Source of the DNA: a virus
Lineage: Duplodnaviria > Caudoviricetes
IMG/VR virus record: IMGVR_UViG_3300037067_013617
Coordinates: 1-64,000 of that record
Reading direction: 5' to 3' (one strand)
DNA: 64,000 bases
Shown: one piece after another, positions 17,776 through 36,963 of the stretch
Numbering within the stretch: position 1 is the first letter of the stretch
Layout of the letters: every line of letters starts with the position of its first letter
Made by a program: the position numbers and the translations under genes
The notes under the pieces: generated by a model
The model's database searches: none
Told to the model about the DNA's origin: nothing
Seen by the model: the letters and a program-made list of their open reading frames with translations, nothing else

Positions 17776-17997
17776 TTATTTTGCCGTAATTTGATTATCG
17801 ACTAAATCTATCGTAATAACATGTTTACACTGCCTGCACTTAGCCTCGGCTGCCTGATCCATGAAATTAAAATATAGAATTGAAATATTCCGATACAATA
17901 TTTCCTTTTCATTTTTAATTGCAAATACAGAATTGCAATTAGGACACCTGAGCTTGACGCTATTTTTTATTTCTATCCCGTTCGTTATTCCGTACAT
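17776..17997 (-). CDS. Small zinc-ribbon protein (Mu Com-like)
   Basis: LRCPNCNSVF...EAKCRQCKHV. Confidence 0.55.
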   Translation of the reverse strand: MYGITNGIEIKNSVKLRCPNCNSVFAIKNEKEILYRNISILYFNFMDQAAEAKCRQCKHVITIDLVDNQITAK

Positions 17998-20569
17998 CTT
18001 TCTTTTTCCCCTTGGGAGTTATATTTTCACCTATTTTTTCAACCGTTTCTCCCGCGGGTTGTACGGTATTTTTTCCGGATAAGGCATCAGCTAATAGATC
18101 GGCCATCTTTTTTAAAATACCTTTTATTTTTGTTTTCGTATCTCCTGTATCATTCTTATCTTTTTTATTATCTGTTTTTTTTTTGTCAACACCTTTGTCA
18201 TCTTTCTTGTCAGAAACCTTGTCCGAATTCTTACCTGATTTAACCGATTTCCATGTCCCGTCGGCCATCTTCTGCCGCTTCGTCCCATCTTTGTACGTCC
18301 GGACTTCGCCTATCTCAGCTTTTTTTGCTTTTTGAAGATCGGTGAGGAGAAGAGAAAAGGCTTTTTGGAGAGAATTTTGTTTTTCATTAATCAATTCTTC
18401 TATAGCTTTTATTCTTAATATATTATGCTCTGGATTTTCTTTAAATATTTTTAATTTTTCTTTTAATGAACTTATTGCTCTACCTTTATAATCGAAATCT
18501 TCTTTAATTGCATCTATCAATGGTCTTTTCTCGTTAGCTATTTTTAATTGGTCTTCTGATAATATTGTTTTATATTTTTTGTCGTTATTGTTCATTCCAT
18601 TTTGTAACAATTCTTCTATAGCTTTTATTCTTCCTTTTGTTTCTTGTGTTTGAGCCAATTCTTTCTGTATTTTTAAAATTTTTGTTAATTCATTTTTACT
18701 TTTAGTAGAATAAAAATCTTTTAAATGATAACCCTTTTGAAAGGTTTCATCTTTTTTTTCTGTTTCTATTTGTTCTTTTGTTTTCCCCGTCCCGAATCCT
18801 TTATCTGCTTTTTCTTTTTTATATTTATCAAATATTTGTTTTGCCCATTGTGCCGGTGTAGAATCTTTAAATTCTTTTATATCAATAGCCGCCTGTAAAT
18901 GATCTTCCATAATAGATAAATTATTTAATCCACGTTTTCCTCTTGGTTTCGTATCAAGAGATTCTATTAACTTCATAGCAGCTTTTCGTTGTGGCTCAAT
19001 CAATGATTGTCTTTTTCTTAATTCATTTAATGGCAATTTAGATAAAAATTCTATATCAGATTGATGTTGCTGTTCAGTATAAGTTAAAAGATCGTCACTA
19101 TTAACTCCTTTTTTCTTGTTTTCTTCTTTTAACGACATAACGCTTGTTTTGTCGTTGGCTTTTTCTCCCTGTAATTTGGTTATTGCAATTTGAGCGGCAT
19201 TATATACAGAGACAGCTCCGCGCCTTGCCTGTTTTATTTTTCCAGGACCTGCGCCACTATTAGCATTTTGATCTCTTCCTGCATCTTTTTGATATTTTTT
19301 TAAAATTTCTTTTAATACATCAATATTTTTATTTCTACCAATAGCATCAAGAACTCTTTGACCATCTTTTTGGATAGATTCTGGAACAGCTTCTTTAAAA
19401 ACGTTATGTCCTATTATGTCATATATATTTTGTTTTGTTTTTTCATCTAAATCAGCTATCAATTTTTCCTCTTTCTTCCCCTCTCCGCTCATAGATTTTA
19501 TTTTATCGTCAAGAATTTGAATTGCATCTTTGGTGTCTAATTCCTCCATCCACGTTGATCCTTTCAATTTACCAGTTTCAAATTTATTTTTTAAATCTTT
19601 AAGATATGAAATATTATTTAAGGTTTTTAATGCTATTTTAAATCCTTCAGCGCCCTTTAATCCTTCCTTCCCCTTGCTTTCGCCACTCACTATCCCTGCA
19701 ACCTGTTTCATCAAACTTAAATTATAGCTTTTATTATCTTTACCGGGAACGGTCGTCTTTTTATCTCCGGACGGAGACCGTTTGATTTCTCCGGTAGCTT
19801 TATTTTTTGTAATAATTTCTTTCTTCTGAAATTTTTTATCCCATTTATCTTTATTCGATAAATATTCATTTACGTAATCACTGAAGACATCGATGCTTAC
19901 GCCGGATAATTTTTCTTTATTGGTTTGATAAATCTGCTTAATTTTTTCCTGAGCCTGCTTCGTATCTTTAAATCCAAAGAAAGACATAATGCCTGATAAG
20001 ATACTTCCCTTTTTTCCTTGCTCTTCTTTGTACCAATATCTATATCCGCCTTTCCCGTCCGACTCGCGTTTAACGTACTTTGTCATCCGGGCTTTTTCCA
20101 TTTTACCGGATTTTAATTTCTTTTCCATTGCCATAAGTGCCTGATAATAATTCTTAAATTCAGCAAGATGATTCGCAGCAATATGTTTATAAACTTCTTT
20201 CTCCGGAGGCATTTCGTCATGTTTATTATAATAATCACGAATAAAATCAAAAGTTTCTTTATGCTCAGATTCTATTTTAGTACCGAGTTCAAGAGCGGAT
20301 TTGTCCTCTTTCATATATTTTCCGCTTTCGCTTCCCGCGATGGCCAAGGCCTGTTGACGACTTGTAACTATGCCTCCGCTGCCACTATGCAGTTTCCCTG
20401 TCTTGAATTCATGCATTACTGCCTCAAATTTATCGTCCGGATTCTTTAATTTTTTGCGTTTAGCGGCTCCGGCGCCGAGCTTATCCGGATGTTTATATGT
20501 ACTGGAAGGGACTGCTTTATCCATCGGCACGAATACATTGTCGAAGAGTTTAAGGAATAATTTTTTCAT
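17960..20569 (-). CDS. Large multi-module head-associated (putative internal/ejected) protein carrying the KY..R..DGKGG tag
   Basis: DUF6496-like VMHEFKTGKLHSGSG..VTSRQQALAI; DUF5661-like GTKIESEH...IAANHLAEFKNYY; tag MEKARMTKYVKRESDGKGGYRYWY; several LQKA sites. Confidence 0.65.
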   Translation of the reverse strand: MKKLFLKLFDNVFVPMDKAVPSSTYKHPDKLGAGAAKRKKLKNPDDKFEAVMHEFKTGKLHSGSGGIVTSRQQALAIAGSESGKYMKEDKSALELGTKIESEHKETFDFIRDYYNKHDEMPPEKEVYKHIAANHLAEFKNYYQALMAMEKKLKSGKMEKARMTKYVKRESDGKGGYRYWYKEEQGKKGSILSGIMSFFGFKDTKQAQEKIKQIYQTNKEKLSGVSIDVFSDYVNEYLSNKDKWDKKFQKKEIITKNKATGEIKRSPSGDKKTTVPGKDNKSYNLSLMKQVAGIVSGESKGKEGLKGAEGFKIALKTLNNISYLKDLKNKFETGKLKGSTWMEELDTKDAIQILDDKIKSMSGEGKKEEKLIADLDEKTKQNIYDIIGHNVFKEAVPESIQKDGQRVLDAIGRNKNIDVLKEILKKYQKDAGRDQNANSGAGPGKIKQARRGAVSVYNAAQIAITKLQGEKANDKTSVMSLKEENKKKGVNSDDLLTYTEQQHQSDIEFLSKLPLNELRKRQSLIEPQRKAAMKLIESLDTKPRGKRGLNNLSIMEDHLQAAIDIKEFKDSTPAQWAKQIFDKYKKEKADKGFGTGKTKEQIETEKKDETFQKGYHLKDFYSTKSKNELTKILKIQKELAQTQETKGRIKAIEELLQNGMNNNDKKYKTILSEDQLKIANEKRPLIDAIKEDFDYKGRAISSLKEKLKIFKENPEHNILRIKAIEELINEKQNSLQKAFSLLLTDLQKAKKAEIGEVRTYKDGTKRQKMADGTWKSVKSGKNSDKVSDKKDDKGVDKKKTDNKKDKNDTGDTKTKIKGILKKMADLLADALSGKNTVQPAGETVEKIGENITPKGKKKDVRNNERDRNKK

Positions 20570-20585
20570 GAAAGATGCATCCTAA

Positions 20586-20637: not shown

Positions 20638-21459
20638 TTATTCAATAATGCCTTTAAATCCGGAAGCAAGAATTTTAGATTTAATTTCATTTTTCCAAAA
20701 TAACGAAGGAATTCTTATAATACATTTTTCATTTAATGTCGGAATAATTTCTGGAGAATAAATTTTAACACCATTTACTGTTTTCCCTATTTTTGCCGGG
20801 GTTTCGTCGATTATTCCAGTTGCTATGCCATCCCATGAATATAAAAATTCTCTACTGGCGCCATAATAATAAATTGGATACTCATTTTGTTTTTTTACGA
20901 ATGTTAATATTAAAGTAGGAATTTTTAATTTTCCATTTAGAATTTCCTGTTGTCCAGCTTTTTCTTCGAGTATATCAAAATCCTTTTTAAATAATTTTAT
21001 TATACTTGCGTGATAAAAATGTTGAATATGTTCTTTGATTACCGGGATATATCCATTATTGTATTGACCGGCGTCCGGTACCATTACCTGGAAAGTATCT
21101 AAATATTTTTTAATATTTTTAATAACTCCTTGTAAGTTCCAGCAATGTTCAAGGAAATCAATATAATCAGGGATGGCCGGAAAATCATAATCATTAACTT
21201 GTCTTAAATCCGTAAAATTTAATCCTTTCCTGATAGTAGGTGTATATATATTGTCGTAATATTCTTGTTCATAATATTTTTTTAAATTCCTTAATTCTTT
21301 TCTTGTTAATTGATTAAATAAATGCGTACAATCATTACAACTTATAAATCGAATATCTTTATATAATAAAGATTGATCTATCTTGTAAGTTTTAATAACC
21401 GTACCTTTTCTTAAATTTTTAGATTCACATACAGGACATTTCATGATATCTTCTCCCAT
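20638..21459 (-). CDS. Sugar C-methyltransferase-like protein, apparently internally shortened
   Basis: N-terminal CPVC...CNDC zinc site; LEH, VPD and EHIQHF motifs; C-terminal YGA...IIDETPAKIGKTVNGVKIYSPE; no obvious glycine-rich SAM motif. Confidence 0.6.
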   Translation of the reverse strand: MGEDIMKCPVCESKNLRKGTVIKTYKIDQSLLYKDIRFISCNDCTHLFNQLTRKELRNLKKYYEQEYYDNIYTPTIRKGLNFTDLRQVNDYDFPAIPDYIDFLEHCWNLQGVIKNIKKYLDTFQVMVPDAGQYNNGYIPVIKEHIQHFYHASIIKLFKKDFDILEEKAGQQEILNGKLKIPTLILTFVKKQNEYPIYYYGASREFLYSWDGIATGIIDETPAKIGKTVNGVKIYSPEIIPTLNEKCIIRIPSLFWKNEIKSKILASGFKGIIE

Positions 21460-22700
21460 TCTTTTAATTTTTTATCTTCAGGATAACATTTCGCATATTG
21501 CTTGATACTTCCCTTGCTTACACTGGCCCATTGCCGACTACGCCTCAATAATGCCACAATTCCAATTCTATCATCATCATTAAAAGGTTTTGCATATTTG
21601 CCGAGTGATTCCTTAAATAGATATGAGCCGATATTGTTTCCGTACCATGATTTTTTTGATTTATTAATCCACATGAGCTCAGTAAATTCCTGTTGCCATG
21701 CGGAGAGCATTGATTCTGTATTATAAATTGCTTTTACACTTTCTTTATGTAAAAATAAATTATCTTTATGTAAATAAATCCATTTTATAGACTCGGCATA
21801 TTTTTCTTCTGTCGATCTTATGCCAGTTCTCCAATTATCAACAATAAATTTTTCTGGCTCATTATCCAGCACTACCGGCACGACACCCGTTGCCATTGCT
21901 TCCCCGATAACCTGTTCGCATGTACCTATATGCTTTTCGTATAACGGATATCCGAATACATCCATCTGCGCATACCATTGTAATAATTCATCTTGATTTA
22001 ATTGTCCCGTAATAACAAACTTATCTGTCAGCCCTTTTTCTTGAATTTGTTCTTTAAGTAATTCCAAATCCGGCCCGCCACCACATACAATAAATTTAAC
22101 ATTAGGAATATCAATATCAGCACATAAACTAACGAAATCGGGATGGATCTTACTATTGAAATCAATAGTCCCACAATAACCAACGTTAAAAGTATCTCCA
22201 TGAAGTACCTTTTTAATATTATAAAATTTTGTTAAATCGGATACGCTCCAAATAACACCAAACTTTTGTTTTTGTTTATCCGATAATTCCTGATATTCTT
22301 TTGCCTGATAACTTACCGGCGATGTAAATATAAATCTATCACACATATCGACTAATCTCTCAGGGATAACATAGGGCGGATTAAGACAGTTTGAATGTGA
22401 CCAGATAACAAGGCGACATTCAGGTATATTCTGCAAACACAGAAATTCATATAACAAAGGATTATTATACCAATGTAATAAAACAATATCATTACATTTA
22501 ATAAGATAATTAAGTTTTTCAGGCCAGTTTCTTAATCCATGATAAGCATCTTCAATTTGTACACTTCTTGAATCATTCGGATTGAGGCACCCTATTGTAT
22601 GTATATTTTTATTATCATGTTTAATTAAATTATCAATAACAGCTCCGACTCCGCCACCTAAATGTACAGCTACATGTAAAATTTTCATCGGCAACTCCAT
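21441..22700 (-). CDS. GT-B glycosyltransferase (GT4 family)
   Basis: KILHVAVHLGGGVG; FIVCGGGPD; DVFGYP...EQVIGEAMATGVVPV (Ex7E-like). Confidence 0.85.
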   Translation of the reverse strand: MELPMKILHVAVHLGGGVGAVIDNLIKHDNKNIHTIGCLNPNDSRSVQIEDAYHGLRNWPEKLNYLIKCNDIVLLHWYNNPLLYEFLCLQNIPECRLVIWSHSNCLNPPYVIPERLVDMCDRFIFTSPVSYQAKEYQELSDKQKQKFGVIWSVSDLTKFYNIKKVLHGDTFNVGYCGTIDFNSKIHPDFVSLCADIDIPNVKFIVCGGGPDLELLKEQIQEKGLTDKFVITGQLNQDELLQWYAQMDVFGYPLYEKHIGTCEQVIGEAMATGVVPVVLDNEPEKFIVDNWRTGIRSTEEKYAESIKWIYLHKDNLFLHKESVKAIYNTESMLSAWQQEFTELMWINKSKKSWYGNNIGSYLFKESLGKYAKPFNDDDRIGIVALLRRSRQWASVSKGSIKQYAKCYPEDKKLKEWEKIS

Positions 22701-22706
22701 AATATA

Positions 22707-24296
22707 TTATTCAAAAGAATATCCTTCTTCTTTAAATTTCTCTATAATATTATCATAAAAAGAATTTTTATTGATAAAATGATTATAATGCATATTCATT
22801 TTATCATCATCTCCCATATTTTGATATATTCGATATAACATATAATGAGCAATTGCCTGATTCGGATAATGATTTACTACGTTTTGAAAATATTTTAGAC
22901 AAATATCATATCTCTTGTTTTTAAAATTACTGTTTTGTAAATAATTAACAACAATATTCATGTAATATGCATATTCTTCTATCGCTTTTGGATCCACTCC
23001 CGGAGCTTTAATATTACATTTCCCTACGGTATAATCATTATAATCTTTACTCAAAAGATATCCGGCATCTTGACATTGCTGATATAAACGACTGCCTGCA
23101 ATAGGTACTACTATAAATATATGAGCCCAATCTATTTCAGTATCTAATAATATTTGTAAGGATTCCGCCCTGTCTTCATCTGTTTCAAATGGAAAACCTA
23201 TAATAATGAATGCATGTAACCGAATATCATATTGTTTAAGAATTTTAACTGCTTTAAATATCTGTTCCCGGCGCAAAGGTTTATTGATAATATCTTTTAA
23301 AATATGATCCGACCCGGATTCAATTGCAAGCGGCAACACTTTTATTTTACATTCGCTAAAGGCCTTAGCAATTTCTTCATCTATTTGAAATACCGCTACA
23401 CCATTAGGAAATTCAATATTAATATTTAAATTTTTAAATTCAGATAAAAGATATAGTGCCCGATCTTTATTCGCTAAAAAATGATCGTCTTCAATAAGTA
23501 ATATATCTAATTTATATTCATCGATATAATGTTTAACAGTTTCAAGCACTCGACGAGCTGACATCTTGCGGATTCTTTTTCCATGCACTGTGCCGTTGCT
23601 GCAATACACACAAGAGAAAGGACATCCCCTGGACGTATGGATGCTTACTTCGATTTTATCTTTTATGTCTTTGTCGATATATGATCTTCCATTATATTTT
23701 TTTAAATCAATATAACTAAAATCTATCAGAGGTATTTCATCAAGATTTTCAATAAAATCATATTGTGGTAGAATTCCGGTTTTAATCGTTTCTCTTGTAA
23801 TCCATGCAGGACTATTTATAGAATTCGTTTCCAATAATTTTTTAAATGGAATTTCCCCTTCGCCATAACATGCTAAATTTATTTCCGGTATTTCGTTAAA
23901 TAAATCTTGATATAAATTTGTTGCTAATCCTCCGCCTACAATCAATAAACATTTAGGAATAATTTCCCGACAAGTTGCTGCGATATATTTTAGATGGGGG
24001 AAACATGTATTGAAAAGGGCGGAAATACAAATACAATTCGGTTGGAAATCATTAAGTAAATTTTTTAAAGCATCAATTATATCAATTTGAGGATCTATTA
24101 TTTTTGAATTTATTAAAAGATCATTAATATCAAATATTCTTATATCGTGTTCTTTATTTTGATTGATATAAGATATAATTGATAATACTCCATAAGGCGG
24201 AGTCAATGTCGGAAGTTTCAACCCAGCCATCTTTGGGTTGTATTCATCAAATGGTAGATAAGGCGGAATTATAAATAATATTTTATTTCGCGGCAT
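22707..24296 (-). CDS. Cobalamin-binding radical SAM enzyme (class B methyltransferase-like)
   Basis: PPYGVLSI, IVGGG, GEGE (B12-binding domain); TSRGCPFSCVYC; IESGS; FIIGFPFET. Confidence 0.9.
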   Translation of the reverse strand: MPRNKILFIIPPYLPFDEYNPKMAGLKLPTLTPPYGVLSIISYINQNKEHDIRIFDINDLLINSKIIDPQIDIIDALKNLLNDFQPNCICISALFNTCFPHLKYIAATCREIIPKCLLIVGGGLATNLYQDLFNEIPEINLACYGEGEIPFKKLLETNSINSPAWITRETIKTGILPQYDFIENLDEIPLIDFSYIDLKKYNGRSYIDKDIKDKIEVSIHTSRGCPFSCVYCSNGTVHGKRIRKMSARRVLETVKHYIDEYKLDILLIEDDHFLANKDRALYLLSEFKNLNINIEFPNGVAVFQIDEEIAKAFSECKIKVLPLAIESGSDHILKDIINKPLRREQIFKAVKILKQYDIRLHAFIIIGFPFETDEDRAESLQILLDTEIDWAHIFIVVPIAGSRLYQQCQDAGYLLSKDYNDYTVGKCNIKAPGVDPKAIEEYAYYMNIVVNYLQNSNFKNKRYDICLKYFQNVVNHYPNQAIAHYMLYRIYQNMGDDDKMNMHYNHFINKNSFYDNIIEKFKEEGYSFE

Positions 24297-25029
24297 GTAT
24301 ATCCAGCCAGCCTAATGCTAAATTTTGATTATCAATTTCTTTCAATTCTTTATACTTCATGTACTGTGTCAAACATTCATCAAAAGATAAATATTTTTCA
24401 TCTCGAAATAAATCATCTCCGAATAATCCGGAATGATATTTCCCGAATTTATAATTTATTGATTTATCTGTTTTATCTTCATTATTTGCCTGGTTAATAA
24501 GTTTAAATTTAGTATAATCGCAAGCATATAAAAAACTAAAAATTTTATAATAATCAAAGCGCGATAATTCAAAACTTAAAAATAAAGGACCTTGACCAAC
24601 AAAGGATGGATCTATTAACCATGCAAATAGTTGCCGTATAACTAAAAAATCTAATCCTTCAATATCTGTTTTAATAAAATACGGTATTCCATATTCTTGA
24701 AATAGATATTTTAAATTTATTGTTTTTACTGATTGTTTAATAACAGTATCAGATGATTTCCAAAATGATACTTTAACGGGATCGCATGTGCTCCAGTCTG
24801 AATGTTCTTTATTGATATAAAATAAATAATCAATATCATTGATATCGTAAAATATCTTATTTAATAATATTAGTTGACCGGATTTTATTTCCGAAGCGAA
24901 TCGATCTGTTCCTTTGTATATTAATTCTGGATTTGCATCAACCGCTATTACTTTATAATCCTTTTTTAAATAATAATCAGTATCATCTCCATTATGAAAT
25001 CCAAGATCAAAAATTGTTTTTTCAAACAC
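24283..25029 (-). CDS. FkbM-family methyltransferase
   Basis: IFDLGFHNGDD...VIAVDANP; FIKTDIEGLD. Confidence 0.85.
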   Translation of the reverse strand: MFEKTIFDLGFHNGDDTDYYLKKDYKVIAVDANPELIYKGTDRFASEIKSGQLILLNKIFYDINDIDYLFYINKEHSDWSTCDPVKVSFWKSSDTVIKQSVKTINLKYLFQEYGIPYFIKTDIEGLDFLVIRQLFAWLIDPSFVGQGPLFLSFELSRFDYYKIFSFLYACDYTKFKLINQANNEDKTDKSINYKFGKYHSGLFGDDLFRDEKYLSFDECLTQYMKYKELKEIDNQNLALGWLDIHAAK

Positions 25030-26002
25030 TTAACATTCTCCTTAATATTTTTTCTGCTGATATATCTAAATTAACAGGCATCCCCCGGATCAATTGATCG
25101 CATTCTCTGCAAATATGATATTTATTTCCTTTGAGCATATTCATTTGAATATTTTTAAGAAATTTTCCGTCCCATATTTGTTTTACAGATTGCTTATTAA
25201 TATGTCCTAATAATATTCTTTGGTCCCAATCCAAGAAACAGATAGAGGCATAACCCGATGCTTGAAAAACCAGGGTATAAAATATATATGGACATATTTG
25301 AACATTATCTAATGGCTGCCCATATACTCCAACTTCTTTGTTTATATTATTAACTTTTGTATCGTACCAGCAATTCATCGTATGTTCAATACCCCTGCCA
25401 TCACTGATGGGAGTGAATATATCAAAGAATTGTTGTTGTTCTGCTTCAGATAAATAGTCGCCGTTGATCTTAATATATATTTCACATTGTTTTTTATGTT
25501 GATATAAATAAGTTAAATTTTCGATAAAATTATTCCAACAGATATTAAATCCACAAAATTTTTTATATTGTTCAGCATTTATTCCTTCAATTGAAATATT
25601 TATTCGATCTATACCGGCATCAATAATTTCTTCAACATTAGTCCTGCCATTTGATTTCGGAGATCGATTAAACAAACTTGCGTTTGTTGTAGTATCTACT
25701 TTTAATACCTTATTAGATTGCTTCGCATAAGCAACCATATCTGGAAATTTTTTATTCATCAAGGGCTCACCGAATCCATATAACCGTATTGTTTTTATTG
25801 GATTTTTAAAGTCCTGTAAATCATCAATTATTTTCTTATATAATTCAAAATCCATAACTTGCGGATTTCTTATCTTCGAATTCATACAAAATTTACATTG
25901 AAAATTACAGGCATTAGACGGATCAATGAAAATAACGTATGGAGATTCTAGGGGGATCTCATTCGCTAAATCAGTTCTATTTTCAAGTTGTATTCTTTTC
26001 AT
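25022..26002 (-). CDS. Radical SAM/SPASM-domain protein
   Basis: CNFQCKFC; GFGEPLMN; TTNAS; C-terminal CPYIF...IC..DW...CREC; likely start MKRIQL at 26002. Confidence 0.9.
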   Translation of the reverse strand: MKRIQLENRTDLANEIPLESPYVIFIDPSNACNFQCKFCMNSKIRNPQVMDFELYKKIIDDLQDFKNPIKTIRLYGFGEPLMNKKFPDMVAYAKQSNKVLKVDTTTNASLFNRSPKSNGRTNVEEIIDAGIDRINISIEGINAEQYKKFCGFNICWNNFIENLTYLYQHKKQCEIYIKINGDYLSEAEQQQFFDIFTPISDGRGIEHTMNCWYDTKVNNINKEVGVYGQPLDNVQICPYIFYTLVFQASGYASICFLDWDQRILLGHINKQSVKQIWDGKFLKNIQMNMLKGNKYHICRECDQLIRGMPVNLDISAEKILRRMLSV

Positions 26003-26009
26003 CTTTTCC

Positions 26010-27545: not shown

Positions 27546-27558
27546 TATTTTCGTCTCC

Positions 27559-28272: not shown

Positions 28273-30654
28273 TTATTTTTTGATCTTAAATATTTGATTC
28301 TTATATCTATAGAAACCTTTTAATAGAGCGTCATTATTTTGCAAGAACTTATCTATTGATGGCATAATTTTTTCAACAAAAATTTCTTCTGTCGGATGAT
28401 TCGGACTTTTTACATCCATAATATCATTATTTTTTGTTTTAATCGCCCAATATTGTTCCATAGCACGTGCGAAACATTCACAAGTCCTATTTTGATATTT
28501 AGATGTCTGTTTTTTTACCATATTTTTTCTAAATGTACTAGCTATTTCACCTGCAATATCTTCCGGATTATCTGATGCATAATGTCTGCCTGTTTTTTCA
28601 CCGATATAATAATCCATAAAATGTCCCCACTCATGGGAGATAATAAAACCTGTTCCTTTGTCTCCATGTGCAGTTACACCAATTGCGTGCATAGAAGGAA
28701 TAAACAATCCGATAGCCTTTCTTGCGTGCATCATCTTATCACCAGCATGGGATATCTTTAGCCCAAATGTTTTAGCCATTGATGATTTATTCCCGAAAAC
28801 GGAAAAAAGATCATCCATTGCAGATTTAATTTCCTGAATTTCTAACTCATTTATTTCTGCTCCGTTTTGACGTTTTACTTTTACGCCGTAATCCTGTAAT
28901 AAATTATCTTTAGTTCCTTTGTCGCCGTATGCAGTTTCTTTTCCCTTCGTATATGTACTGTAATAATCTTCAAGCTGAATTTCCATATCTTCTGTTTTCT
29001 GTTTTAAATCCTGACGCAACCAACGATAAATTTCCCATAAATTTTTAGTTTCATAACGGCTCCCGCCGGTAAAGCTATTGATAAGATCCATTTGATGGTA
29101 AGAAATTTTATTCTCAGGCAGCATCGTAATACGCTTTTTCCTTGTACGCAATGCCTGGTCTTCTTTTAATTTAGCCTTTGCTTTCTTTAGATAATAATCC
29201 TGCGTTGCGGCGAATACATCTCTATTAACTATCGCAAAATTATTTTCACCTATTTCTTTTCCCCAATCTCTGATACTCGGAGCCATTCTTTTAGCATTAA
29301 GCGCTAACAAATATTTATCTTCACCGAGTTTATATGCAGGAATAAAATAATTTGACGATCTGAAATACGCTTCGTCAACTTCAGGAATATATGCCGGACG
29401 GGGATCGGTTAAAATAGTCTTTTCCTTTGCTAGATATATATCTTTCGGCCTTACCGCTGTATAATCTTTGGCTATATATTTTACAGGCTGTTTATCTTTG
29501 CCGCTGAATGGAATTTCAACCTCTGTATCAGTAGGATTAAATTTTGATACCGGCATTATTACATCCTCCTGTTTTATTTCAGGAATATCCAATATCTCAC
29601 GTTCAACTTCATTCCGTGTTTCCGGAGTCGCTTTATTTATAGCTTCTGCGATTTTAATGTCTTTTTTCTTCTGCTCAGGAGTTTCTTCTGTTGACATTTC
29701 GGCTGTCTCTTCCTCCTCCTCCGCCGGTTGTGCAGGAGCAGATTCTATAACCGGTTCGGCAGGAGTTTCTATCTTTTCTATGATTTTTTCTTTTTCAAAT
29801 CTTTTTAATTGTTCATTTTGACCATTTAAAACCTGAGTCCATTTATTAATATAATCAGTATAAACAGATTTTGTATCGAATGGAACTTCCCCTCTTTTTT
29901 CTCTATATCCTTTTATGGTTTTTTCCGTGTCTTTAATGTTTCTTTTTAAATTTTCTATTAAAAGAGATTGTTCACTGCTATCCATTTTATAAAAATTTTG
30001 TTTTATTTCATAAGATGATGGATTATCTTGTCCAGTTAATTCTTTTGCCCTTTCTTTTGAAATATCCGGTAAAATAGATGATTCTTCCAATATCTCAATA
30101 GCAGGTGTTTCCTTTTTCCCATAAATATTAAATATCTCCCGCATAACCTGCAATTTGAGCCCGGTCATACTCTCTTTCTTTTCTTTCTTTTCGGCAGGCT
30201 TTTCTTCTTTCTTTTCTTTTTTCTCAGGCGTTGTTTTTTGTTCTTTCTTTCCGGAAAAGAATTTATCCCACTTTTCTTTATTCATGAAATAAGCAGATAC
30301 ATGAGACTTCCAACTGTCCCAAGTTAAATTATATTTCTTCCCGATCTCATGCGATTCGTAATCTTTCATTACCTGTTTCATCGCCTGATTCTTATCCTTG
30401 AAATTAAAGAATCCGGCTATTTTTGACAACCAGCCTTCCTGTTGATCTGCTTTAAATTGATTATATTCTGCTTGAGTATAGAAATAACTGAATCCTTTAC
30501 CGTTGGCTTTCGGGACTCGTTTGACATATTTATGTCCGGGACGAATATCGCCGGAGGCTTTCTGTATATTTTGTGATTTAATATTATTTTTTTTACGATA
30601 GAATCCGAATGGAATATCTAAATAGTTATTTATAATTTTATTAATATCTTTCAT
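28273..30654 (-). CDS. Tagged polyvalent-type protein with C-terminal LPD1-like zincin domain
   Basis: Tag IQKASGDIRPGHKYVKRVPKANGKGFSYFY; C-terminal ISHEWGHFMDYY...ECFARAMEQY. Confidence 0.75.
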   Translation of the reverse strand: MKDINKIINNYLDIPFGFYRKKNNIKSQNIQKASGDIRPGHKYVKRVPKANGKGFSYFYTQAEYNQFKADQQEGWLSKIAGFFNFKDKNQAMKQVMKDYESHEIGKKYNLTWDSWKSHVSAYFMNKEKWDKFFSGKKEQKTTPEKKEKKEEKPAEKKEKKESMTGLKLQVMREIFNIYGKKETPAIEILEESSILPDISKERAKELTGQDNPSSYEIKQNFYKMDSSEQSLLIENLKRNIKDTEKTIKGYREKRGEVPFDTKSVYTDYINKWTQVLNGQNEQLKRFEKEKIIEKIETPAEPVIESAPAQPAEEEEETAEMSTEETPEQKKKDIKIAEAINKATPETRNEVEREILDIPEIKQEDVIMPVSKFNPTDTEVEIPFSGKDKQPVKYIAKDYTAVRPKDIYLAKEKTILTDPRPAYIPEVDEAYFRSSNYFIPAYKLGEDKYLLALNAKRMAPSIRDWGKEIGENNFAIVNRDVFAATQDYYLKKAKAKLKEDQALRTRKKRITMLPENKISYHQMDLINSFTGGSRYETKNLWEIYRWLRQDLKQKTEDMEIQLEDYYSTYTKGKETAYGDKGTKDNLLQDYGVKVKRQNGAEINELEIQEIKSAMDDLFSVFGNKSSMAKTFGLKISHAGDKMMHARKAIGLFIPSMHAIGVTAHGDKGTGFIISHEWGHFMDYYIGEKTGRHYASDNPEDIAGEIASTFRKNMVKKQTSKYQNRTCECFARAMEQYWAIKTKNNDIMDVKSPNHPTEEIFVEKIMPSIDKFLQNNDALLKGFYRYKNQIFKIKK

Positions 30655-31545
30655 TTAATCAATCTCCTCTAAATATATTATCGTTTTGTCGAACCATTCC
30701 TTTTCTATTTTTTCTTTTTTTATTATTTTATATTTTCCTTTAGGAATTACAATTTCTTTTTCATGCTTATATAATGAAAATGGACTTATGTCTACACCAC
30801 GAGTATTATTTGCAATTATAAATTTTAAATTGAATCGTTCTTTTGAACCATGTTTTAAATATCCTCCCGGAGCAGAAAATGAAGACATAGAATCAATTTC
30901 AAATATATCATTTTCTTTAACTGAATCGTATAATTGATCTTTGAAATCTTCAAATACTCTAAAAATTTCACCATTATATTTAGGAGCATTTTGAATATAT
31001 TTTTTTAATGTATTATATATTTCAAAATGATTTTTTTTTAAACCTATATTTTTTTCTTTATCAATAATTCCTTTATCTATCTTTTTAACAATACTGCTAT
31101 TCGCTATACCATCATTATCTTCAGTCCATGCCATTATATTAAAAAAATTTTCTTCATTTATATCTATTTTATCTTTTTGATTATTAATTAAAACTTTTTT
31201 TCCTGTACCCAATCCTATATTTTCCTCTGCTTTCCCTCCCTTTTTCCCTTGTCCTTCCCTATACCAATATTTCCAACCGCCTTTCCCGTCCGGTTCTCTG
31301 CGGATATACTTTGTCGGACGAGCCTTAGTCATATCAATTTCATAATCTTCATAACCAGTCTCTTCTATTCGTTTTATTTTAAGTACGGGTTTGTGATACC
31401 AATCATATGTAACCTGTTTATTAACCTGTTCAGTAATTTTTTGTTTTTCATCTTCAGATAATGTTTTAGTAGAATTATTATTCGGAAGATCAGCGTACAT
31501 GCTATGAATAATATTATTTTTACCATCTAAATATATTTTACTCAT
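30655..31545 (-). CDS. Tagged ADP-ribosyltransferase (VIP2/C3/Alt-like R-S-E clade)
   Basis: YNGEIFRV (R), SMSSFS (STS-like), VDISPFSLYKHEKEIVIPKG (ExE); tag MTKARPTKYIRREPDGKGGWKYWY. Confidence 0.85.
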   Translation of the reverse strand: MSKIYLDGKNNIIHSMYADLPNNNSTKTLSEDEKQKITEQVNKQVTYDWYHKPVLKIKRIEETGYEDYEIDMTKARPTKYIRREPDGKGGWKYWYREGQGKKGGKAEENIGLGTGKKVLINNQKDKIDINEENFFNIMAWTEDNDGIANSSIVKKIDKGIIDKEKNIGLKKNHFEIYNTLKKYIQNAPKYNGEIFRVFEDFKDQLYDSVKENDIFEIDSMSSFSAPGGYLKHGSKERFNLKFIIANNTRGVDISPFSLYKHEKEIVIPKGKYKIIKKEKIEKEWFDKTIIYLEEID

Positions 31546-33536
31546 TTTGTTACCTTTTTATATTCAATATTAAAATCATTTTTTAAAACAGAAGATTCTT
31601 GTACCAAATCCCAAAATATTTCCCGATGTATTTTCTCCGCTTTATATGGAGTTATTTCTTTTGATTTAACTTTAGGAGTTAAAATACTAAAAACTTTTTC
31701 ATTAATGCTATTTAAGACATTTATAAAAGTAGTATTTTTATTCTTCAAATCATAAGATTCTCCAAATTCATCTGAATTTCTTGATTTTTTTTTGTGACTA
31801 ATTTTAAAAGAATAAATATCATTTGGAGTCTTTACTCTTATTTCTTTTATTCCCAAACTCAGCGCTAAAAATACATCCTCAACACTAAATGATACATCTT
31901 CAGGATGAGTATGCGTCAATATTTCAATATTTCTTAATTGCTTTACCTCGTTCTCATCAAATTCTATTTTATCATATATTCCTTCTTTATGGAATAAAAT
32001 ATTTCCATCTCTATCGATAACATTTACTTTTTCCTTTCCTGAAGGATTTATATCTTTTTCTATATTGTTTGTTGTTAATAAAGATGCTTTAGAAGTTTCT
32101 GAATGACCGATTCTTTCCTCAAACCCGATTAAGTTATAATTAAATAATAAATTATGACTATCAAATTTCATTTTTAACTTTATATTTTCTTCATCATTTT
32201 CACCTTTAAATTTTTTTTTTATGTCTTCTTTATAAAAATATCTATACCCGCCTTTCCCATCGGGAGACCTGCGGACATATTTATGACCGGGGCGGATGTC
32301 ACCGATGGCTTTAGCAAGAGATTCTTTTTTTAAATCAGGATAATCTTTTAATACTTCATCAGGAACACTTTTACCTATTTTAAGAGCATTTTTAACTGCG
32401 TCTTTATGTCCTTTATATTTTTTCCAATCATTGGTAATAAAAATCACAGGTTCGTCATCGCCGCCTGTTCCGATCTGTCTTCCTTTTCCATAATGAGTAA
32501 TATTCCCACCTGCCATGCTTCCAGATATTGGCGTTACATATACACTTACGCCTCGTTCTTGTTTATTGTCCATGTGATTATAGCTTCTTCCGCTTTTCGG
32601 AGGTTGCCCTGATCTATAAAAATCTCGTTCCTCACCTAAAACATAAACATCGCCATCATTGTCTTTTGCATATTTTTTTGCTTCTTCGGCGTTATCAAAC
32701 ATTTTTATTCTTTCTTGTTCGTTCCATCCTCGGAATAACCATTCTGCTTTATTCTTCTTAGCAAAATCTATCTGTTCATCATAATTAGTGACGACTTGCA
32801 TGTCAGCATAAGTTATTGGAGTACTTGCTTCATCTTTTGTTAATTGCCAAATTTCTTTTTTCGGAGTTAATTTTTTTAAATGACTTTTATATTCCTGTTT
32901 AGTTCTATTTTTTTCTTTTTCTATATCTTCCGATTTATCTATTTCATATGCTTTGCTTTCCATTGCAAACGGTTGTAAATCTGATGCAAAATATCCTCCT
33001 CCGAATATATAATGTTTCTCTGGATCATACGTGATCGTTTCTTTACCATTATTATATTTGGCCTCAAACGATTTATTATTTAGAATTGCTTCTGATAATT
33101 TTTTACCAATATCAACATTGGCTTTATCTTCTTCATCTTTTATTTTATAATTTTTAATTTTTCCTAAAAATTCATTTTGTAACCTTTGAAGTTCAGGCTT
33201 AATTTCATTAAATTTATTTTCTTTAATTTTCAACAAAGAAGACGGTTCTTTTAATTCATTGTATAATCTTTGTTTTTCTTTATGAAAATCCACTTTCGCT
33301 CCTTTTGCTTCACCCTGCCCCTCCCTATAAAAATACCTCCATCCACCTTTGCCGTCAGCCTCTCTGCGAATATATTTTGTTATCCGAGCTTTCTCCATAT
33401 CCTCATAATAATCAGGATCTTCGTCAAGGCGCTTTATAGCCATTCTTGTCGCAATCAATACATTGCCTGCTTTCTGCAGCTCAATTTCTATGGCATCGCG
33501 AAGCTGACGCGGTGAGTAATTTTTAAAGAGTTTCAT
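31542..33536 (-). CDS. Doubly tagged polyprotein: DUF5661-like N-terminus, ART-like middle domain, C-terminal JAB/MPN-like domain
   Basis: Two tag copies; YRSG.PP.SGRSYN...ERGVSVY...GGDDEP; KEKV..IDRDG...LTHTHPEDVSFSVED (E...HxH...S..D). Confidence 0.7.
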   Translation of the reverse strand: MKLFKNYSPRQLRDAIEIELQKAGNVLIATRMAIKRLDEDPDYYEDMEKARITKYIRREADGKGGWRYFYREGQGEAKGAKVDFHKEKQRLYNELKEPSSLLKIKENKFNEIKPELQRLQNEFLGKIKNYKIKDEEDKANVDIGKKLSEAILNNKSFEAKYNNGKETITYDPEKHYIFGGGYFASDLQPFAMESKAYEIDKSEDIEKEKNRTKQEYKSHLKKLTPKKEIWQLTKDEASTPITYADMQVVTNYDEQIDFAKKNKAEWLFRGWNEQERIKMFDNAEEAKKYAKDNDGDVYVLGEERDFYRSGQPPKSGRSYNHMDNKQERGVSVYVTPISGSMAGGNITHYGKGRQIGTGGDDEPVIFITNDWKKYKGHKDAVKNALKIGKSVPDEVLKDYPDLKKESLAKAIGDIRPGHKYVRRSPDGKGGYRYFYKEDIKKKFKGENDEENIKLKMKFDSHNLLFNYNLIGFEERIGHSETSKASLLTTNNIEKDINPSGKEKVNVIDRDGNILFHKEGIYDKIEFDENEVKQLRNIEILTHTHPEDVSFSVEDVFLALSLGIKEIRVKTPNDIYSFKISHKKKSRNSDEFGESYDLKNKNTTFINVLNSINEKVFSILTPKVKSKEITPYKAEKIHREIFWDLVQESSVLKNDFNIEYKKVTK

Positions 33537-33540: not shown

Positions 33541-33903
33541 TTACCTTAACTTAAAATCAAAATTTATTGCTTTTGCATTAAAAAATTGCTGACTAAAAAT
33601 AATAACTTTTTCAGGATCAAATTCCTTACAGGAAAATAAATTTATATAGCAATCATTATGTCTATTATCTTCTCTGCAATGTATCGTAATGCTGGATGTC
33701 ATTAAAAACTGGAATGCAGAAATTCCTTCTATGTCGCCTTCTCCGAATCTCTCCACGATGCATTCACCATAAGGCTTCATTTTTATTAATTGCAATATAT
33801 CATAAATATATTTTTTTATTGGTTCTTTTTGTGTTATGCATAATCTATCGCAGTCGAATAAATCAAGTATCAGTTCATAGCCCCAGTGCTTTTTCTGCTC
33901 CAT
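33541..33903 (-). CDS. speD: S-adenosylmethionine decarboxylase proenzyme
   Basis: WGYELILDLFDC...GISAFQFLMTSSITIH...YINLFSCKEFD; likely start MEQKK at 33903. Confidence 0.8.
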   Translation of the reverse strand: MEQKKHWGYELILDLFDCDRLCITQKEPIKKYIYDILQLIKMKPYGECIVERFGEGDIEGISAFQFLMTSSITIHCREDNRHNDCYINLFSCKEFDPEKVIIFSQQFFNAKAINFDFKLR

Positions 33904-33907
33904 GCTT

Positions 33908-34897
33908 TTATTCCCCCAAAGATTTAATTTCTGTTTTATATCCAAACGGCTCATTTAAATTGCCGGACTGAATCCATTCCCTGATTTTTTTCGTATTGGT
34001 CTGTCTTATCGAAATTAATCCGTCCCATCCTTTTTGGTAATTTGATAGATAAGCAGCCTCGGCCTCTTCTATATTGTCAAAGCCTAACATGATTTTATGC
34101 TCATCGAACAAATTATTTTTTCCCTGGTTGACAACGAAAGCTCTCGATGCCCCAATTTTATCTCCTATAAAAACATCAATAGGATCATTGTCAGCGGCCT
34201 CCGTTCCTATAATATAACCGTAATGATTTTTCATCTTCGTCAACCATTTCCGGCCAGATTCGTCAAACCCCCAGCGGACACTTCCTTTCGGATTTTCAAT
34301 GCGAATACGAAGTCCCTTATATTCAATTAATCCTTTACGGTAGTTACCGCTTTCTTTCTGCGCGGGAGTCGGATCGGTATCAGTATCAATATGCTTTAAT
34401 TGAAATTTTACCTTCTGTATTTCTTTCGTCGGATTCAATGTCTCTTCGATAATTGCCAGTATCTTATCTATCTTTTGCGGGAACAGAATTGCCGTCCCTC
34501 CGGCATCCTTCCACGGCTTCAGGTTCCTATCCATGTCATCGATCAATATACTTTTCTCGTCAATTACATACGGCGATTTATCAACTGCAAAAATAACGTC
34601 AAATTCTTTTCCGACATTTTCCTCCAACCACGAAATTTTATCCCATTTACAATACTGCATATTTTCCATCGGAGTCGTCAAGAATACGATTTTATATTTA
34701 TTCCGCAGCTGATTCAATAATTCCATGCCTTCAGGGACAACTTTCAATTTCCGGAAAAAATGAGGGTCTTGCAAACAGACCTGATTTATGGTAAAGGAAT
34801 CGTCTGCGTATGCGTTGCGGCCAAAGAATTCTTTATATCCGCGGGCGAAGTCAGCGATTACGCCATCGAGATCGAAAAATATTATTTGTTGTGTCAT
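33908..34897 (-). CDS. Fusion of HAD 5'(3')-deoxyribonucleotidase-like domain and polyvalent-protein inorganic pyrophosphatase-like domain
   Basis: FFDLDGVIADF...LIDD (HAD); PTPAQKESGNYRKG...IENPKGSVR...HYGYI.GT..AD.DPIDVF...FDEHKIMLGF; likely start MTQQ at 34897. Confidence 0.85.
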   Translation of the reverse strand: MTQQIIFFDLDGVIADFARGYKEFFGRNAYADDSFTINQVCLQDPHFFRKLKVVPEGMELLNQLRNKYKIVFLTTPMENMQYCKWDKISWLEENVGKEFDVIFAVDKSPYVIDEKSILIDDMDRNLKPWKDAGGTAILFPQKIDKILAIIEETLNPTKEIQKVKFQLKHIDTDTDPTPAQKESGNYRKGLIEYKGLRIRIENPKGSVRWGFDESGRKWLTKMKNHYGYIIGTEAADNDPIDVFIGDKIGASRAFVVNQGKNNLFDEHKIMLGFDNIEEAEAAYLSNYQKGWDGLISIRQTNTKKIREWIQSGNLNEPFGYKTEIKSLGE

Positions 34898-34898
34898 A

Positions 34899-35024
34899 TT
34901 ATCTTGCCTTATTCTTATATATTCGTATAGTTTCTTCATCTACCTGATTGTACCAAAATTTACGAGCAAATCGGGCAACTTCGGTTTCCCATACAGGAGC
35001 ATATTGTTTGAATATATCGATCAT
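34899..35024 (-). CDS. Possible 41-aa ORF (MIDIFKQYAPVWETEVARFARKFWYNQVDEETIRIYKNKAR)
   Basis: Fills the gap between two genes and stops 1 nt before the next ATG; below the ORF-track cutoff. Confidence 0.4.
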   Translation of the reverse strand: MIDIFKQYAPVWETEVARFARKFWYNQVDEETIRIYKNKAR

Positions 35025-35046
35025 TTATCAATTTACATAATCATAA

Positions 35047-36963
35047 TTAATTTTTTATTTTAGGAAATTTACAAATTGCTAATATCTTAGCATTTGTCAT
35101 CTCAATTTCTCCAGGATCGTTTCCTTCGTTTGTATTATTATTAGTTCCTAATAATAATATTTCATCTCCTAAACTTTTATATTTTTCTATTTCATCCATA
35201 ATTTCATCTATAGAATTTGAATCTGCTAACCATAATGCAGAAGTTCCATGTTCTGTATCTGTTATTTTTCCATCTGGTTGATAATAGGACGATTCAGCAA
35301 TATCTCCTATTTTAACTTTAACATGTTTTCCAGTTTTTGGATTTTTACTATTAATTCTTAATCCATAAATGTTATATTCATTCGATTTTAAAATATTTTT
35401 TATTTGTTTTTTAAATTGGTCTTTATAAGGTTTTTCTTTCTTCTTTTCTTCCCCTTTTAATTTTTTATATAATTCTTTTTCTAATTCATAAGCTCTATTA
35501 TATAAATTATCCATTTCATTTGTATCTTTTTCAGGCCATAATTCAGTCCTATAACCTTTTTCATCTTTTCCATATTTTTCTCGTAACCTTTCTTCAATTT
35601 CTAGTGCTTTATCTCTATATTCTTTTTCTCTTTTTTTTAATTTTTCCATATTGGCTTCATTTTCATTTTTTTCTCCTCCATGTTTTTCTTTTAATTCCTT
35701 AACTTTATCTTCCACGGTTTCACCTTCCTTTAATGAAATATGCATCCCATGAATAGTATTTCCTAAAGATAAAGTATCTCTTCCATAATCATAAATCCAA
35801 CCGCCCTTGCCGTCCGGCTTCTTATTCTTATATTTATGATTCGCTTTCGCCTTTTTCATCTCGTCCCAATCGATCCTGCCGTTGACGACCGGAACCATCG
35901 CCTTGCCTAACGTAATCCATTTATGACCGTCCTCATATCTATTCATTGCCTCAGCCTGCACTTCCTCCGGCACCTCTATATCTTTAATCTCGTCAAATAG
36001 CCCTTTCTTGAGGATAAAGCTATTGCTAGTAATATCGAATTTCGGTTGCAAATATTCGAATAATTGTTCCTTGCGGAGATCCCACATATCCTTGATAATG
36101 GCTTCTTTTCTTTTGCGGTCGAATATTGCCTCCAACAAATTGAGTCCTTTTTCGTCTTCAAATGCTAGGATATTATAAAAAGATTTACTTATAAGTAAAC
36201 TCTTGAGATACCATTTATAGACAGTGCAGAATACTTCTTCCTCGGATGATTTCTCCCACTCAAATTCATAGATAGCACCCGGCCTGAGCAATTTGAAATG
36301 TTCATAAAATTTCTTTCTCTCATCGAATTTAACACAATCGCGCCAGAAGATATGCCCGATCTCATGCATGGTATTATCGATATATTCCCTGTCATCATAT
36401 AGGCTGATATTGTTTCCAAGTATCATTGATACTATTTTTTTCTTTTTCTGGTCGTCTGTCGACTCTAAAAAATTAACAATTACGCTATGCGGAGGGAGAA
36501 AAAGTTCTCCGACCTTCAGATTGCCGAAAACCATATTAAACCGGTTAATTTGGTCGCCAAGAGAATCTTTCGGCCAGTCCTGCTTTCCCATAATAATGAA
36601 GGGATCGCGATTATCATTCGGTACTGGCGCAGTGGAATTCTCATCATCAGAAAGACGTAAAGGGGGTCTATCTTCAAAATCTTTCTCATCTTCAATTATA
36701 ACTGCTTTGACAAGGCGCTCAATACTGATTTTTTCTTTTTTATCGGATATGAATTTATCGTCTGTGGGGTCGAATCCGATTATTAAATTATTTTGAATAA
36801 AAAACGGGCTGGAATCTACAATCGCTTTTTTTAATTCTCCATGAGAATATTTTCCATAAGAAATATTATATTTTTTTTCTAAACTTTTTTTTATTTCTTC
36901 TATGGATGTTTCAGGAGAATATTTATTTTTTTCTGATAGTTTTAAAATTTTTTCTTTATCCAT
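35047..36963 (-). CDS. Tagged multi-domain protein: zincin-like HExxH domain plus divergent ART-like C-terminal domain
   Basis: TMHEIGHIFW...EEVFC; tag MKKAKANHKYKNKKPDGKGGWIYDY; C-terminal YGLR...HGTSA...GNDPGEIE. Confidence 0.65.
   Translation of the reverse strand: MDKEKILKLSEKNKYSPETSIEEIKKSLEKKYNISYGKYSHGELKKAIVDSSPFFIQNNLIIGFDPTDDKFISDKKEKISIERLVKAVIIEDEKDFEDRPPLRLSDDENSTAPVPNDNRDPFIIMGKQDWPKDSLGDQINRFNMVFGNLKVGELFLPPHSVIVNFLESTDDQKKKKIVSMILGNNISLYDDREYIDNTMHEIGHIFWRDCVKFDERKKFYEHFKLLRPGAIYEFEWEKSSEEEVFCTVYKWYLKSLLISKSFYNILAFEDEKGLNLLEAIFDRKRKEAIIKDMWDLRKEQLFEYLQPKFDITSNSFILKKGLFDEIKDIEVPEEVQAEAMNRYEDGHKWITLGKAMVPVVNGRIDWDEMKKAKANHKYKNKKPDGKGGWIYDYGRDTLSLGNTIHGMHISLKEGETVEDKVKELKEKHGGEKNENEANMEKLKKREKEYRDKALEIEERLREKYGKDEKGYRTELWPEKDTNEMDNLYNRAYELEKELYKKLKGEEKKKEKPYKDQFKKQIKNILKSNEYNIYGLRINSKNPKTGKHVKVKIGDIAESSYYQPDGKITDTEHGTSALWLADSNSIDEIMDEIEKYKSLGDEILLLGTNNNTNEGNDPGEIEMTNAKILAICKFPKIKN

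Follow-up and report, generated by a model that had tools for sequence, protein, structure and literature searches.

A cassette of probable cut site and β-hairpin on phage polyvalent proteins: a candidate new route for packaging, splitting and delivering enzymes in phage heads

The window analysed here covers the first 64 kb of an uncultured phage's genome, known as one contig of 91,942 bp (IMG/VR record IMGVR_UViG_3300037067_013617), and our subject is a cassette of roughly 30 residues that occurs six times in five of its genes. In each copy a motif resembling the cut site of the phage's own prohead protease is followed by a short β-hairpin. Judged by sequence comparison, the cassette is a widespread module of phage polyvalent proteins, regarded as the arsenal that phages inject, and it seems to belong to a hitherto undescribed means of loading enzymes into phage heads, cutting them apart and delivering them. 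To our knowledge, head entry and splitting of polyvalent proteins have been shown only for a few model phages, T4 and P1. The candidate mechanism put forward here would couple the head protease's own cut site to a hairpin retained on each enzyme; the cassette is found in hundreds of protein clusters and is exchanged along with the cargo.

A recurrent cassette in head-region genes and its spread

The six copies share the consensus [LMI]xKA-x(3-9)-KYxx[RK]xPDGKGGxxYxY and lie in five minus-strand genes between the portal gene and the genes for protease, scaffold and capsid protein. We refer to the [LMI]xKA start as the preface, and to the whole cassette also as the tag. Copy 1 (20030..20101, minus strand) occupies residues 157-180 of an 869-residue protein and has an MEKA preface, a 3-residue linker and the hairpin core KYVKRESDGKGGYRYWY; copy 2 (30478..30567, minus strand; residues 30-59 of a 793-residue protein) has an IQKA preface, the 8-residue linker SGDIRPGH and a hairpin core whose turn is one residue longer. 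Copy 3 (31261..31332, minus strand) lies at residues 72-95 of a 296-residue ADP-ribosyltransferase (ART), with MTKA in front of its hairpin. Two copies belong to a 664-residue protein: copy 5 (33327..33398, minus strand; residues 47-70, preface MEKA) comes first along the chain and is preceded by a 46-residue leader common to relatives, and copy 4 (32232..32318, minus strand; residues 407-435, preface LAKA) is internal. Copy 6 (35785..35859, minus strand; residues 369-393, preface MKKA) sits in the middle of a 638-residue protein, where it separates a conserved N-terminal module with a HEIGH motif from a variable C-terminal part. An earlier reading of the window from its letters alone (the sequence-only reading) had listed six copies in these places, each with an [LMI]xKA start, and on both points it was right. 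With a hidden Markov model of the six copies, these score 49-62 bits, and nothing else in six frames of the whole 91,942-bp genome exceeded 6 bits, which excludes chance; a seventh copy was not found.

Conserved positions of the hairpin are K0 and Y1 (99% each), R/K4, P6, G10, G11, an aromatic residue at 12, Y14 and Y/F16. When an alignment of 56 copies was modelled with AlphaFold, strands were predicted at positions 20-25 and 31-35 around the DGKGG turn, with a predicted local distance difference test score (pLDDT) of about 89, and the preface was modelled as coil (pLDDT about 67). The model thus suggests that the cassette consists of an exposed cut site and then a self-contained basic/aromatic hairpin.

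Searched against 1.84 billion representative proteins, the six-copy profile matches 274 clusters at E <= 1e-3 and 41 at E <= 1e-10, with the matches attached to variable domains, as the sequence-only reading had expected of such a search. The best 150 matched proteins, from which copy counts were taken, hold 234 copies, 67 of these proteins having 2-4 copies each, and reach lengths of up to 3,135 residues. The first tag lies at most 60 residues from the N-terminus in 81 of 147 proteins and a tag near the C-terminus was seen in only five of the 147; the median spacing from tag to tag is 254 residues, or about one domain. Pfam matches, tallied over 114 carriers, are led by DUF5661 (14), ART-PolyVal (11), NUDIX (11) and ddrB-ParB (8), followed by InPase (6), Zeta toxin (6), RelA/SpoT (5) and LPD1, Kinase-PolyVal and DUF6496 (4 each); SAM lyase, DarA_C, cytosine methylase, SNF2 helicase and ferritin domains are present too. 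Pfam domains are flanked by tags, as in a protein where the tag stands directly behind the end of ART-PolyVal (417/420), or in a 1,750-residue carrier with the order tag, unknown, tag, ART, tag, SAM lyase, tag, DarA_C, InPase. Together, the profile matches and the Pfam domains of the carriers support the view of a portable cassette on many different enzymes. The densest example that we have seen is locus L046 (IMG/VR contig 3300032397_000006), where positions 7844-20066 hold at least 12 cassettes in four adjacent genes, with DRAT-like ART, SAM lyase, DarA_C, InPase, DUF5661 and Zeta toxin among the cargo.

IMG/VR yielded 56 loci with the tag. As in the window, the tagged genes lie between the portal gene and the protease, scaffold and capsid genes in relatives L004-L007 and in most of the IMG/VR loci, so the placement in a head module that had been proposed for the window extends to its relatives. 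The hairpins are about 60-70% identical to the copies in the window, compared with 22-28% for the capsid proteins that accompany them. The exact pattern PDGKGGWxYxY was found in only 3 stretches of 185,579 prokaryote genomes, on 2 contigs of metagenome-assembled genomes. A word-indexed homologue search with the tag region of the 296-residue protein returned the query itself and nothing else.

Pfam gave no family for any of the six copies at E <= 0.01 and, up to E = 10, one unrelated family with one copy at E = 0.1; no Pfam LPD model (LPD1-40) covers the tag, and the motif string was not found in the searchable literature. Sub-threshold local matches to positions 41-66 of DUF3892 occur in carrier P0007 (residues 471-492, E = 8.7e-4) and in the L046 protein encoded at 7844-13093 (residues 714-733, E = 7e-3); they may reflect a related hairpin or chance.

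Tagged units are also found rearranged among relatives. Both L013 and L006 encode the C-terminal unit of the 664-residue protein (residues 418-664, from the second tag) as a tagged protein on its own, of 287 and 296 residues respectively. Because the leader of these stand-alone proteins matches that of the 664-residue protein, the gene in the window seems to have gained a tag and a module, inserted between leader and tag. In L005 the N-terminal module of the 638-residue protein is free-standing; in L006, L011, L013 and L036 it is followed by an InPase/NT5C module, with a tag between the two or behind them in L011 and L036. The 793-residue protein corresponds to the C-terminal two-thirds of a 1,179-residue protein of L036. 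This exchange of units at the tags, seen in sequence comparisons, supports the cassette idea. As for the proposal that the polyproteins would yield separately tagged effectors, one such unit, from the 664-residue protein, does appear alone in two relatives, and the cutting itself is only predicted.

The preface and the putative cut site of the head protease

A hydrophobic-x-K-[AGS] motif lies at most 18 residues upstream of the hairpin in 201 of 212 foreign copies, against 13% at random positions, and of 88 copies in which the profile alignment left it out, 86 have it as well; the preface therefore belongs to the module. The spacing between preface and hairpin is either 3 or 8-9 residues.

The same motif is concentrated in the head proteins of the window. 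[LMIV]xKA occurs seven times in the scaffolding protein (15967..16842, minus strand), where 0.85 would be expected, and five times in the prohead protease (16781..17665, minus strand; expected 0.62); the major capsid protein (14462..15964, minus strand; phrog_752) has it once, as LAKA at residues 23-26 before LLAPGS, the probable maturation site. That the KA motif is found in these three proteins had been claimed before and is borne out by these counts. With the wider pattern hydrophobic-x-K-[AGS] the scaffold is the top outlier of 88 open reading frames (ORFs; 11 against 2.2 expected, p = 2e-5), whereas over the entire proteome the count (122) is close to expectation (109), with no excess. 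The scaffold thus holds 7-11 cut-site motifs, and six K-A pairs are invariant among scaffolds that are just 35-49% identical. As listed, the scaffold ORF has a TTG start and overlaps the protease gene; alignment with relatives points to a likely ATG start at 16779 (MLSKDELLQKG).

The motif recurs in the head proteins of all carrier phages that were inspected, and enrichment in scaffolds is 5- to 9-fold. In the close relatives L004-L006, 8-9 sites were counted per scaffold where 1.9 would be expected, the capsid protein carries L[TA]KA-LLAP at residues 24-30, and the protease has its sites at conserved positions. In L007, a distant lineage with a PF04860 portal, the scaffold has 6 sites against 1.3 and the capsid N-terminus reads NLSKA-GSIGYQ. 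At most IMG/VR loci, an ORF of 230-270 residues adjoining a tagged gene has 8-13 sites where about 2 would be expected. Phages without the tag give similar results: the scaffold of Bacillus phage YungSlug (Herelleviridae) has 14 sites against 1.6 expected and its annotated procapsid protease has 9, and the head proteins of Bacteroides phage DAC19 and of an LE1-like Leptospira phage follow the same pattern. The LE1-like phage was considered as a bearer of the same tag and dismissed, since its head proteins carry the K-[AGS] motif and the hairpin was not found in its genome. From this distribution we conclude that the K-[AGS] site motif is older than the tag, and the comparison suggests that hydrophobic-x-K|[A/G/S] is the cut rule common to a large group of phages, namely HK97, Herelleviridae, Bacteroides DAC and Leptospira LE1-like phages, independent of the tag.

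The HK97 major capsid protein gp5 contains F-N-K103-S104, plus three further such sites in its delta domain. The K103/S104 bond is the known maturation cut, by which the delta domain is removed. Since gp5 is cut between K103 and S104, the bond cut in the phage of the window is probably K|A rather than KA|, by analogy, and the cut after KA that the sequence-only reading had drawn (LAKA|LLAPG) should probably be moved by one residue.

In alignments of the protease ORF with its counterparts, D/E, H and G-x-S-like positions stand out as conserved. Its AlphaFold model has the T4 gp21 capsid assembly protease as best PDB match (5jbl; E = 4.5e-4, probability 1.0), followed by herpesvirus assemblins, and thus predicts that a protease of assemblin fold is encoded beside the scaffold and capsid genes. 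Residues about 198-235 of the protease, in its C-terminal part, copy the N-terminal arm of the capsid protein (residues 20-57): VLMKALMAPGSVSDMYNTPGGSVTRQSLEG in the protease and ALAKALLAPGSADDLYNTPGGSLTMQSLEG in the capsid protein, each behind a cut-site motif. Such mimicry was also observed in L004-L006, L007 and Bacillus phage YungSlug, and it may be a way of carrying the protease into the procapsid.

The best evidence for the preface as a protease site comes from a lineage in which the P1 residue has changed jointly in head proteins and tag preface. In L009 and L081, protease, scaffold and capsid protein are fused in a single gene, and the tag preface reads L-A-H-A. The two fusions have 7 and 8 hydrophobic-x-H-[AGS] sites, respectively, against 0.9 expected (p = 5e-5 and 7e-6), and one K-type site only; all H-type sites lie in the N-terminal part, including VLMHA-DDD at the expected boundary of the capsid domain. 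H-type sites are absent from the head proteins of the window. A search for related loci gave no further H-type members, a pattern scan of viral contigs gave one unrelated match, and a pattern scan of metagenomes gave 8 short contigs, of which L081 alone reaches the capsid gene; L071 and L072 were left aside as too short. DUF7211 proteins of the H-type lineage (L009:2529-3155, L071:447-1364 and L077, minus strand) start with Y-L-A-H-H and then G-I-K-G-x-K-W-G-V-R-R, a motif that may, from its position behind an H-type preface, represent another tag family.

The enrichment in scaffold, protease and capsid protein, the FNK-S site of HK97 and the invariance among scaffolds all argue for the earlier proposal that the preface is the motif of the head proteins. 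That the preface equals the putative prohead-protease site is thus supported in silico.

Loading, cutting and delivery: the proposed mechanism, other readings and known systems

The reading that we favour, and which we think slightly likelier to be right than wrong, is that a protease cut site and a retained hairpin form one cassette that loads, splits and delivers polyvalent enzymes. The first part of the cassette would be a prohead-protease site, hydrophobic-x-Lys and then Ala, Gly or Ser, in an unstructured stretch; at this same site the assemblin-fold protease would cut the scaffold, itself and the capsid N-terminus. The second part, 3-9 residues on, would be a self-stabilised β-hairpin of 17 residues, KYxxRxPDGKGGWxYxY, with a basic/aromatic face. 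Carriers, that is polyvalent proteins and their single-domain relatives, would be built into the procapsid and cut by the prohead protease at every cassette. Each released enzyme would then begin with a short linker and the hairpin, be kept in the head, and be delivered along with the DNA. The most likely role of the hairpin, in our view, is that of a common handle that gets the pieces into the head or keeps them there by binding a shared partner such as DNA or the protease. Cleavage of the carriers by the prohead protease seems quite probable on the sequence evidence, and for the hairpin as a loading or retention handle the chances are about even. A more general version, in which the hairpin would be a portable encapsidation or retention handle for a very broad phage group of HK97-type specificity and would bind a partner found in all of them, either the packaged DNA or the prohead protease itself, is possible, though we lean against it.

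Some features of the tag bear directly on the role of the hairpin. Being downstream of the putative cut, the hairpin would stay on the cargo. Leader length in front of the site ranges between 0 and over 300 residues, and in 13 proteins the cassette lies within the first 18 residues, in some of them with nothing to remove, as in M-A-KYIRK...; a hairpin at the N-terminus of the mature piece thus seems to be the conserved outcome.

Several points weigh against the reading we favour. A cultured phage carrying the tag was not found among GenBank phages by tblastn with the 296-residue protein, the 37-residue tag, a 343-residue gut-phage carrier or a 950-residue four-tag carrier as query, and megablast of the tagged region against the same phages gave no match; cleavage and packaging, like injection and the role of the hairpin, are therefore what we infer. 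One loading signal suffices per polyprotein, so loading alone does not explain several tags. The InPase/NT5C gene in the same block is untagged, the H-type co-variation comes from two related contigs only, and the protease model is of modest quality (pLDDT 62). Most tag-bearing loci have a distantly related capsid protein in common (22-28% identity), and evidence from seemingly independent lineages is thus partly common descent within one broad phage group. Finally, scaffold, capsid protein and protease carry the same site motif without a hairpin, so that the hairpin is not needed for cutting. Taken together, the effector-packaging system that the sequence-only reading had envisaged keeps its portable cassette, its location among head genes, its protease-site preface and its tagged units; the loading role that it assigned to the hairpin gained no support.

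The bare sites in scaffold, capsid protein and protease also count against a more restricted view, in which the hairpin would serve solely to dock or present the site to the protease, holding the neighbouring site open or binding an exosite so that polyproteins are cut cleanly, and loading would be left to other parts such as the DUF5661 or DUF6496 leaders. A docking element would account for the constant position of the hairpin 3-9 residues behind the site and for its restriction to phages whose head proteins bear a K/H-[AGS] motif. It would also fit DUF5661, the commonest partner, whose match in the 869-residue protein stops right at the preface like a removed propeptide. The 13 proteins that start with the cassette indicate, however, that the hairpin matters on the mature protein, and we regard docking alone as unlikely. 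A further possibility is that the hairpin acts in the infected cell, either as a nucleic-acid-binding or localisation module or as a cap that protects the new N-terminus from degradation. Its retention on the cargo after the putative cut, its basic/aromatic face and its independent fold in the model would suit such a role, and a hairpin identity of 60-70% beside 22-28% for the capsid is what one would expect of a universal target or a self-contained fold. Such a role does not explain, however, why only head-module genes bear the tag, and only in phages of one protease specificity, and the hairpin matched no known nucleic-acid-binding family, the weak local resemblance to DUF3892 being the only one; a host-side role thus seems improbable to us.

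A simpler explanation would be that the motif is a conserved linker between the domains of large late proteins, which would be neither packaged nor cut, with the likeness to scaffolds coincidental or compositional. The proteins are indeed rich in K and A, and further K-A sites are present in the 869-, 793- and 638-residue proteins. Yet the preface is 7-fold over the control, the proteome as a whole has no excess, and K-A pairs are invariant in fast-evolving scaffolds; the preface turns to H-A along with the motif of the capsid polyprotein, the gene position from portal to protease is conserved, and the cargo set is that assigned to virion-delivered polyvalent proteins in the searchable text of PMC5512222. 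We therefore consider a mere linker very improbable.

Returning to the cassette as a device for loading and cutting, its closest relations are with four known systems. The domain repertoire of phage-type polyvalent proteins and their delivery with DNA were proposed by Iyer, Burroughs, Anand, de Souza and Aravind in 2017 (PMC5512222), and as far as the searchable text of that paper goes, the likeness is extensive: ART-PolyVal, LPD1, InPase, ddrB-ParB, RelA/SpoT, Zeta toxin, Kinase-PolyVal and methylase-helicase domains, a late position among virion genes and proposed delivery with the DNA. The tag carriers likewise combine disparate activities in one polypeptide and are encoded among late/virion genes. 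In the same text, zincin-like metallopeptidase domains are proposed as the agent that processes polyvalent proteins, and neither a cassette nor prohead-protease sites between domains are described there; the cassette may thus offer a testable alternative to processing by a built-in metallopeptidase.

In T4, internal proteins and Alt, which are processed within the procapsid and ejected into the host, carry a capsid-targeting sequence that is removed by the prohead protease gp21, and head proteins of phiKZ and SPN3US have propeptides (PMC9026906, PMC5694885, PMC10052503). Here too, cargo enzymes including an ART share a cut-site motif with the phage's own capsid and scaffold proteins, and their cutting and ejection are putative. 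The T4 targeting peptide, however, lies upstream of the cut, is discarded and has the motif L/I-x-E, whereas the conserved element here lies 3-9 residues downstream of the site, behind leaders of variable length, and would be kept; the motif is hydrophobic-x-K/H and then A/G/S, and the cassette recurs inside polyproteins. The tag is thus not a removable targeting peptide of the T4 type. For P1, an N-terminal signal of 30 residues in DarB is sufficient to load a reporter into the head, the capsid protein is cut at E120/S121, and no consensus signal was reported among the Dar proteins (PMC9024508); DarB is a giant polyvalent antirestriction protein, and its likeness to the carriers lies in having a short signal at the N-terminus. 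We considered the P1 Dar signal as the same tag and rejected it, as there is no sequence likeness and the tag profile had no match in DarB, DdrB, DdrA, DarA or Ulx. With HK97 gp4-type proteases there is likeness in the gp5 cut motif and in fold class, to which the modelled protease of the window would belong, and the hydrophobic-x-K-[AGS] motif is common to Herelleviridae, Bacteroides DAC and Leptospira LE1-like phages. In HK97 and those families the sites are, as described or seen, in capsid protein, scaffold and protease only; here, in contrast, the site is joined to a hairpin and recurs across enzyme cargo.

Were the favoured mechanism true, packaged effectors of uncultured phages could be recognised from sequence alone, their domain boundaries and mature N-termini could be predicted, and a short tag would be at hand for loading proteins into capsids. 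Were the hairpin in addition a handle, there would be a general rule for the packaging of phage polyvalent arsenals, by which any protein placed behind hydrophobic-x-K-A, linker and hairpin would be loaded, cut free and injected, and the tag could be used as it is for protein delivery by phage capsids.

Gene layout and cargo in the window

Nearly all genes of the window are on the minus strand. In transcription order the terminase large subunit (54336-55817) comes first, and the portal gene (49882-51462, minus strand) marks the upstream end of the head region with the tagged genes, from which it is separated by about 13 kb of genes without assignment. An ORF of 586 residues gave no match in BLAST against a Herelleviridae portal; PDB sequence searches with the 465-, 586- and 505-residue ORFs and with the protease ORF returned nothing useful. 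Along transcription, the tagged genes follow as 35047-36963, 31542-33536, 30655-31545 and 28273-30654, then, after an island at 20638-28245, 17960-20569. The protease, scaffold and capsid genes come next, and the tail sheath gene (7937-9703) lies downstream of the capsid gene. Sequence identity of the capsid protein to its counterparts in Bacteroides DAC phages, Herelleviridae and Leptospira LE1-like phages is 25-29%.

In the five carriers of the window, Pfam recognises an ART, a weak LPD1 match and DUF6496/DUF5661 only. The ART is the 296-residue protein (30655..31545, minus strand), for which the sequence-only reading had named this activity; it matches ADPrib_exo_Tox at E = 3e-5. An LPD1 zincin had been named for the 793-residue protein (28273..30654, minus strand), and this stands in part: the match is there, at E = 0.0038, which is below the Pfam cut-off. 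The protein has a C-terminal zincin-like region (HEWGH) and a strong match to phrog_22901; the LPD1-carrying protein of L006 aligns to it at residues 70-194 only, not over the C-terminal zincin region. In the 664-residue protein (31542..33536, minus strand), two cassettes accompany two cargo segments without a recognised family. Two divergent ART-like domains and a JAB domain had been suggested among the cargo, and neither suggestion could be confirmed. The former had no Pfam hit, and the middle part of the 664-residue protein had no usable match; JAB in that protein was dropped as a candidate, with no Pfam hit and with scores of 0.78-0.82 for the Atlas JAB/RadC feature, below the usable level. 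Among predicted structures, the nearest neighbours of the C-terminal segment are C-terminal domains of MuF, minor-capsid-protein and portal fusions (template modelling score 0.6).

The 869-residue protein (17960..20569, minus strand) has DUF6496 and a weak DUF5661 match upstream of its tag, and downstream of it a helical module and then a long charged region; the tag with this 70-residue helical module is common to the 869- and 793-residue proteins. The 638-residue protein (35047..36963, minus strand) has its single cassette in the middle. That cargo follows the tag, as had been proposed, thus describes the pattern, with the qualification that the 869- and 638-residue proteins also have domains upstream of it. 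Near the C-terminus of the 869-residue protein (17960-18340, residues about 745-775), LQKA is followed by KKAEIGEVRTYKDGTKRQKMADGTWKSV, a further cut-site-like motif before a hairpin-like basic/aromatic stretch; this C-terminal module is conserved in L004, L011 and L036.

Among the tagged genes there are also two on the minus strand without a tag, an NT5C+InPase gene (33908-34939) and an AdoMet-decarboxylase-like gene (33541-33954). The island that interrupts the run of tagged genes (20638-28245, minus strand), just upstream of the gene for the 869-residue protein, consists of eight radical-SAM, glycosyltransferase-like and methyltransferase-like genes and is absent from the corresponding place in L004-L006. 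On the opposite strand, a GIY-YIG/NUMOD3 homing endonuclease gene (37851-38765, plus strand) lies between the genes at 38770-40167 and 37054-37830, whose counterparts adjoin each other in the relative L005.

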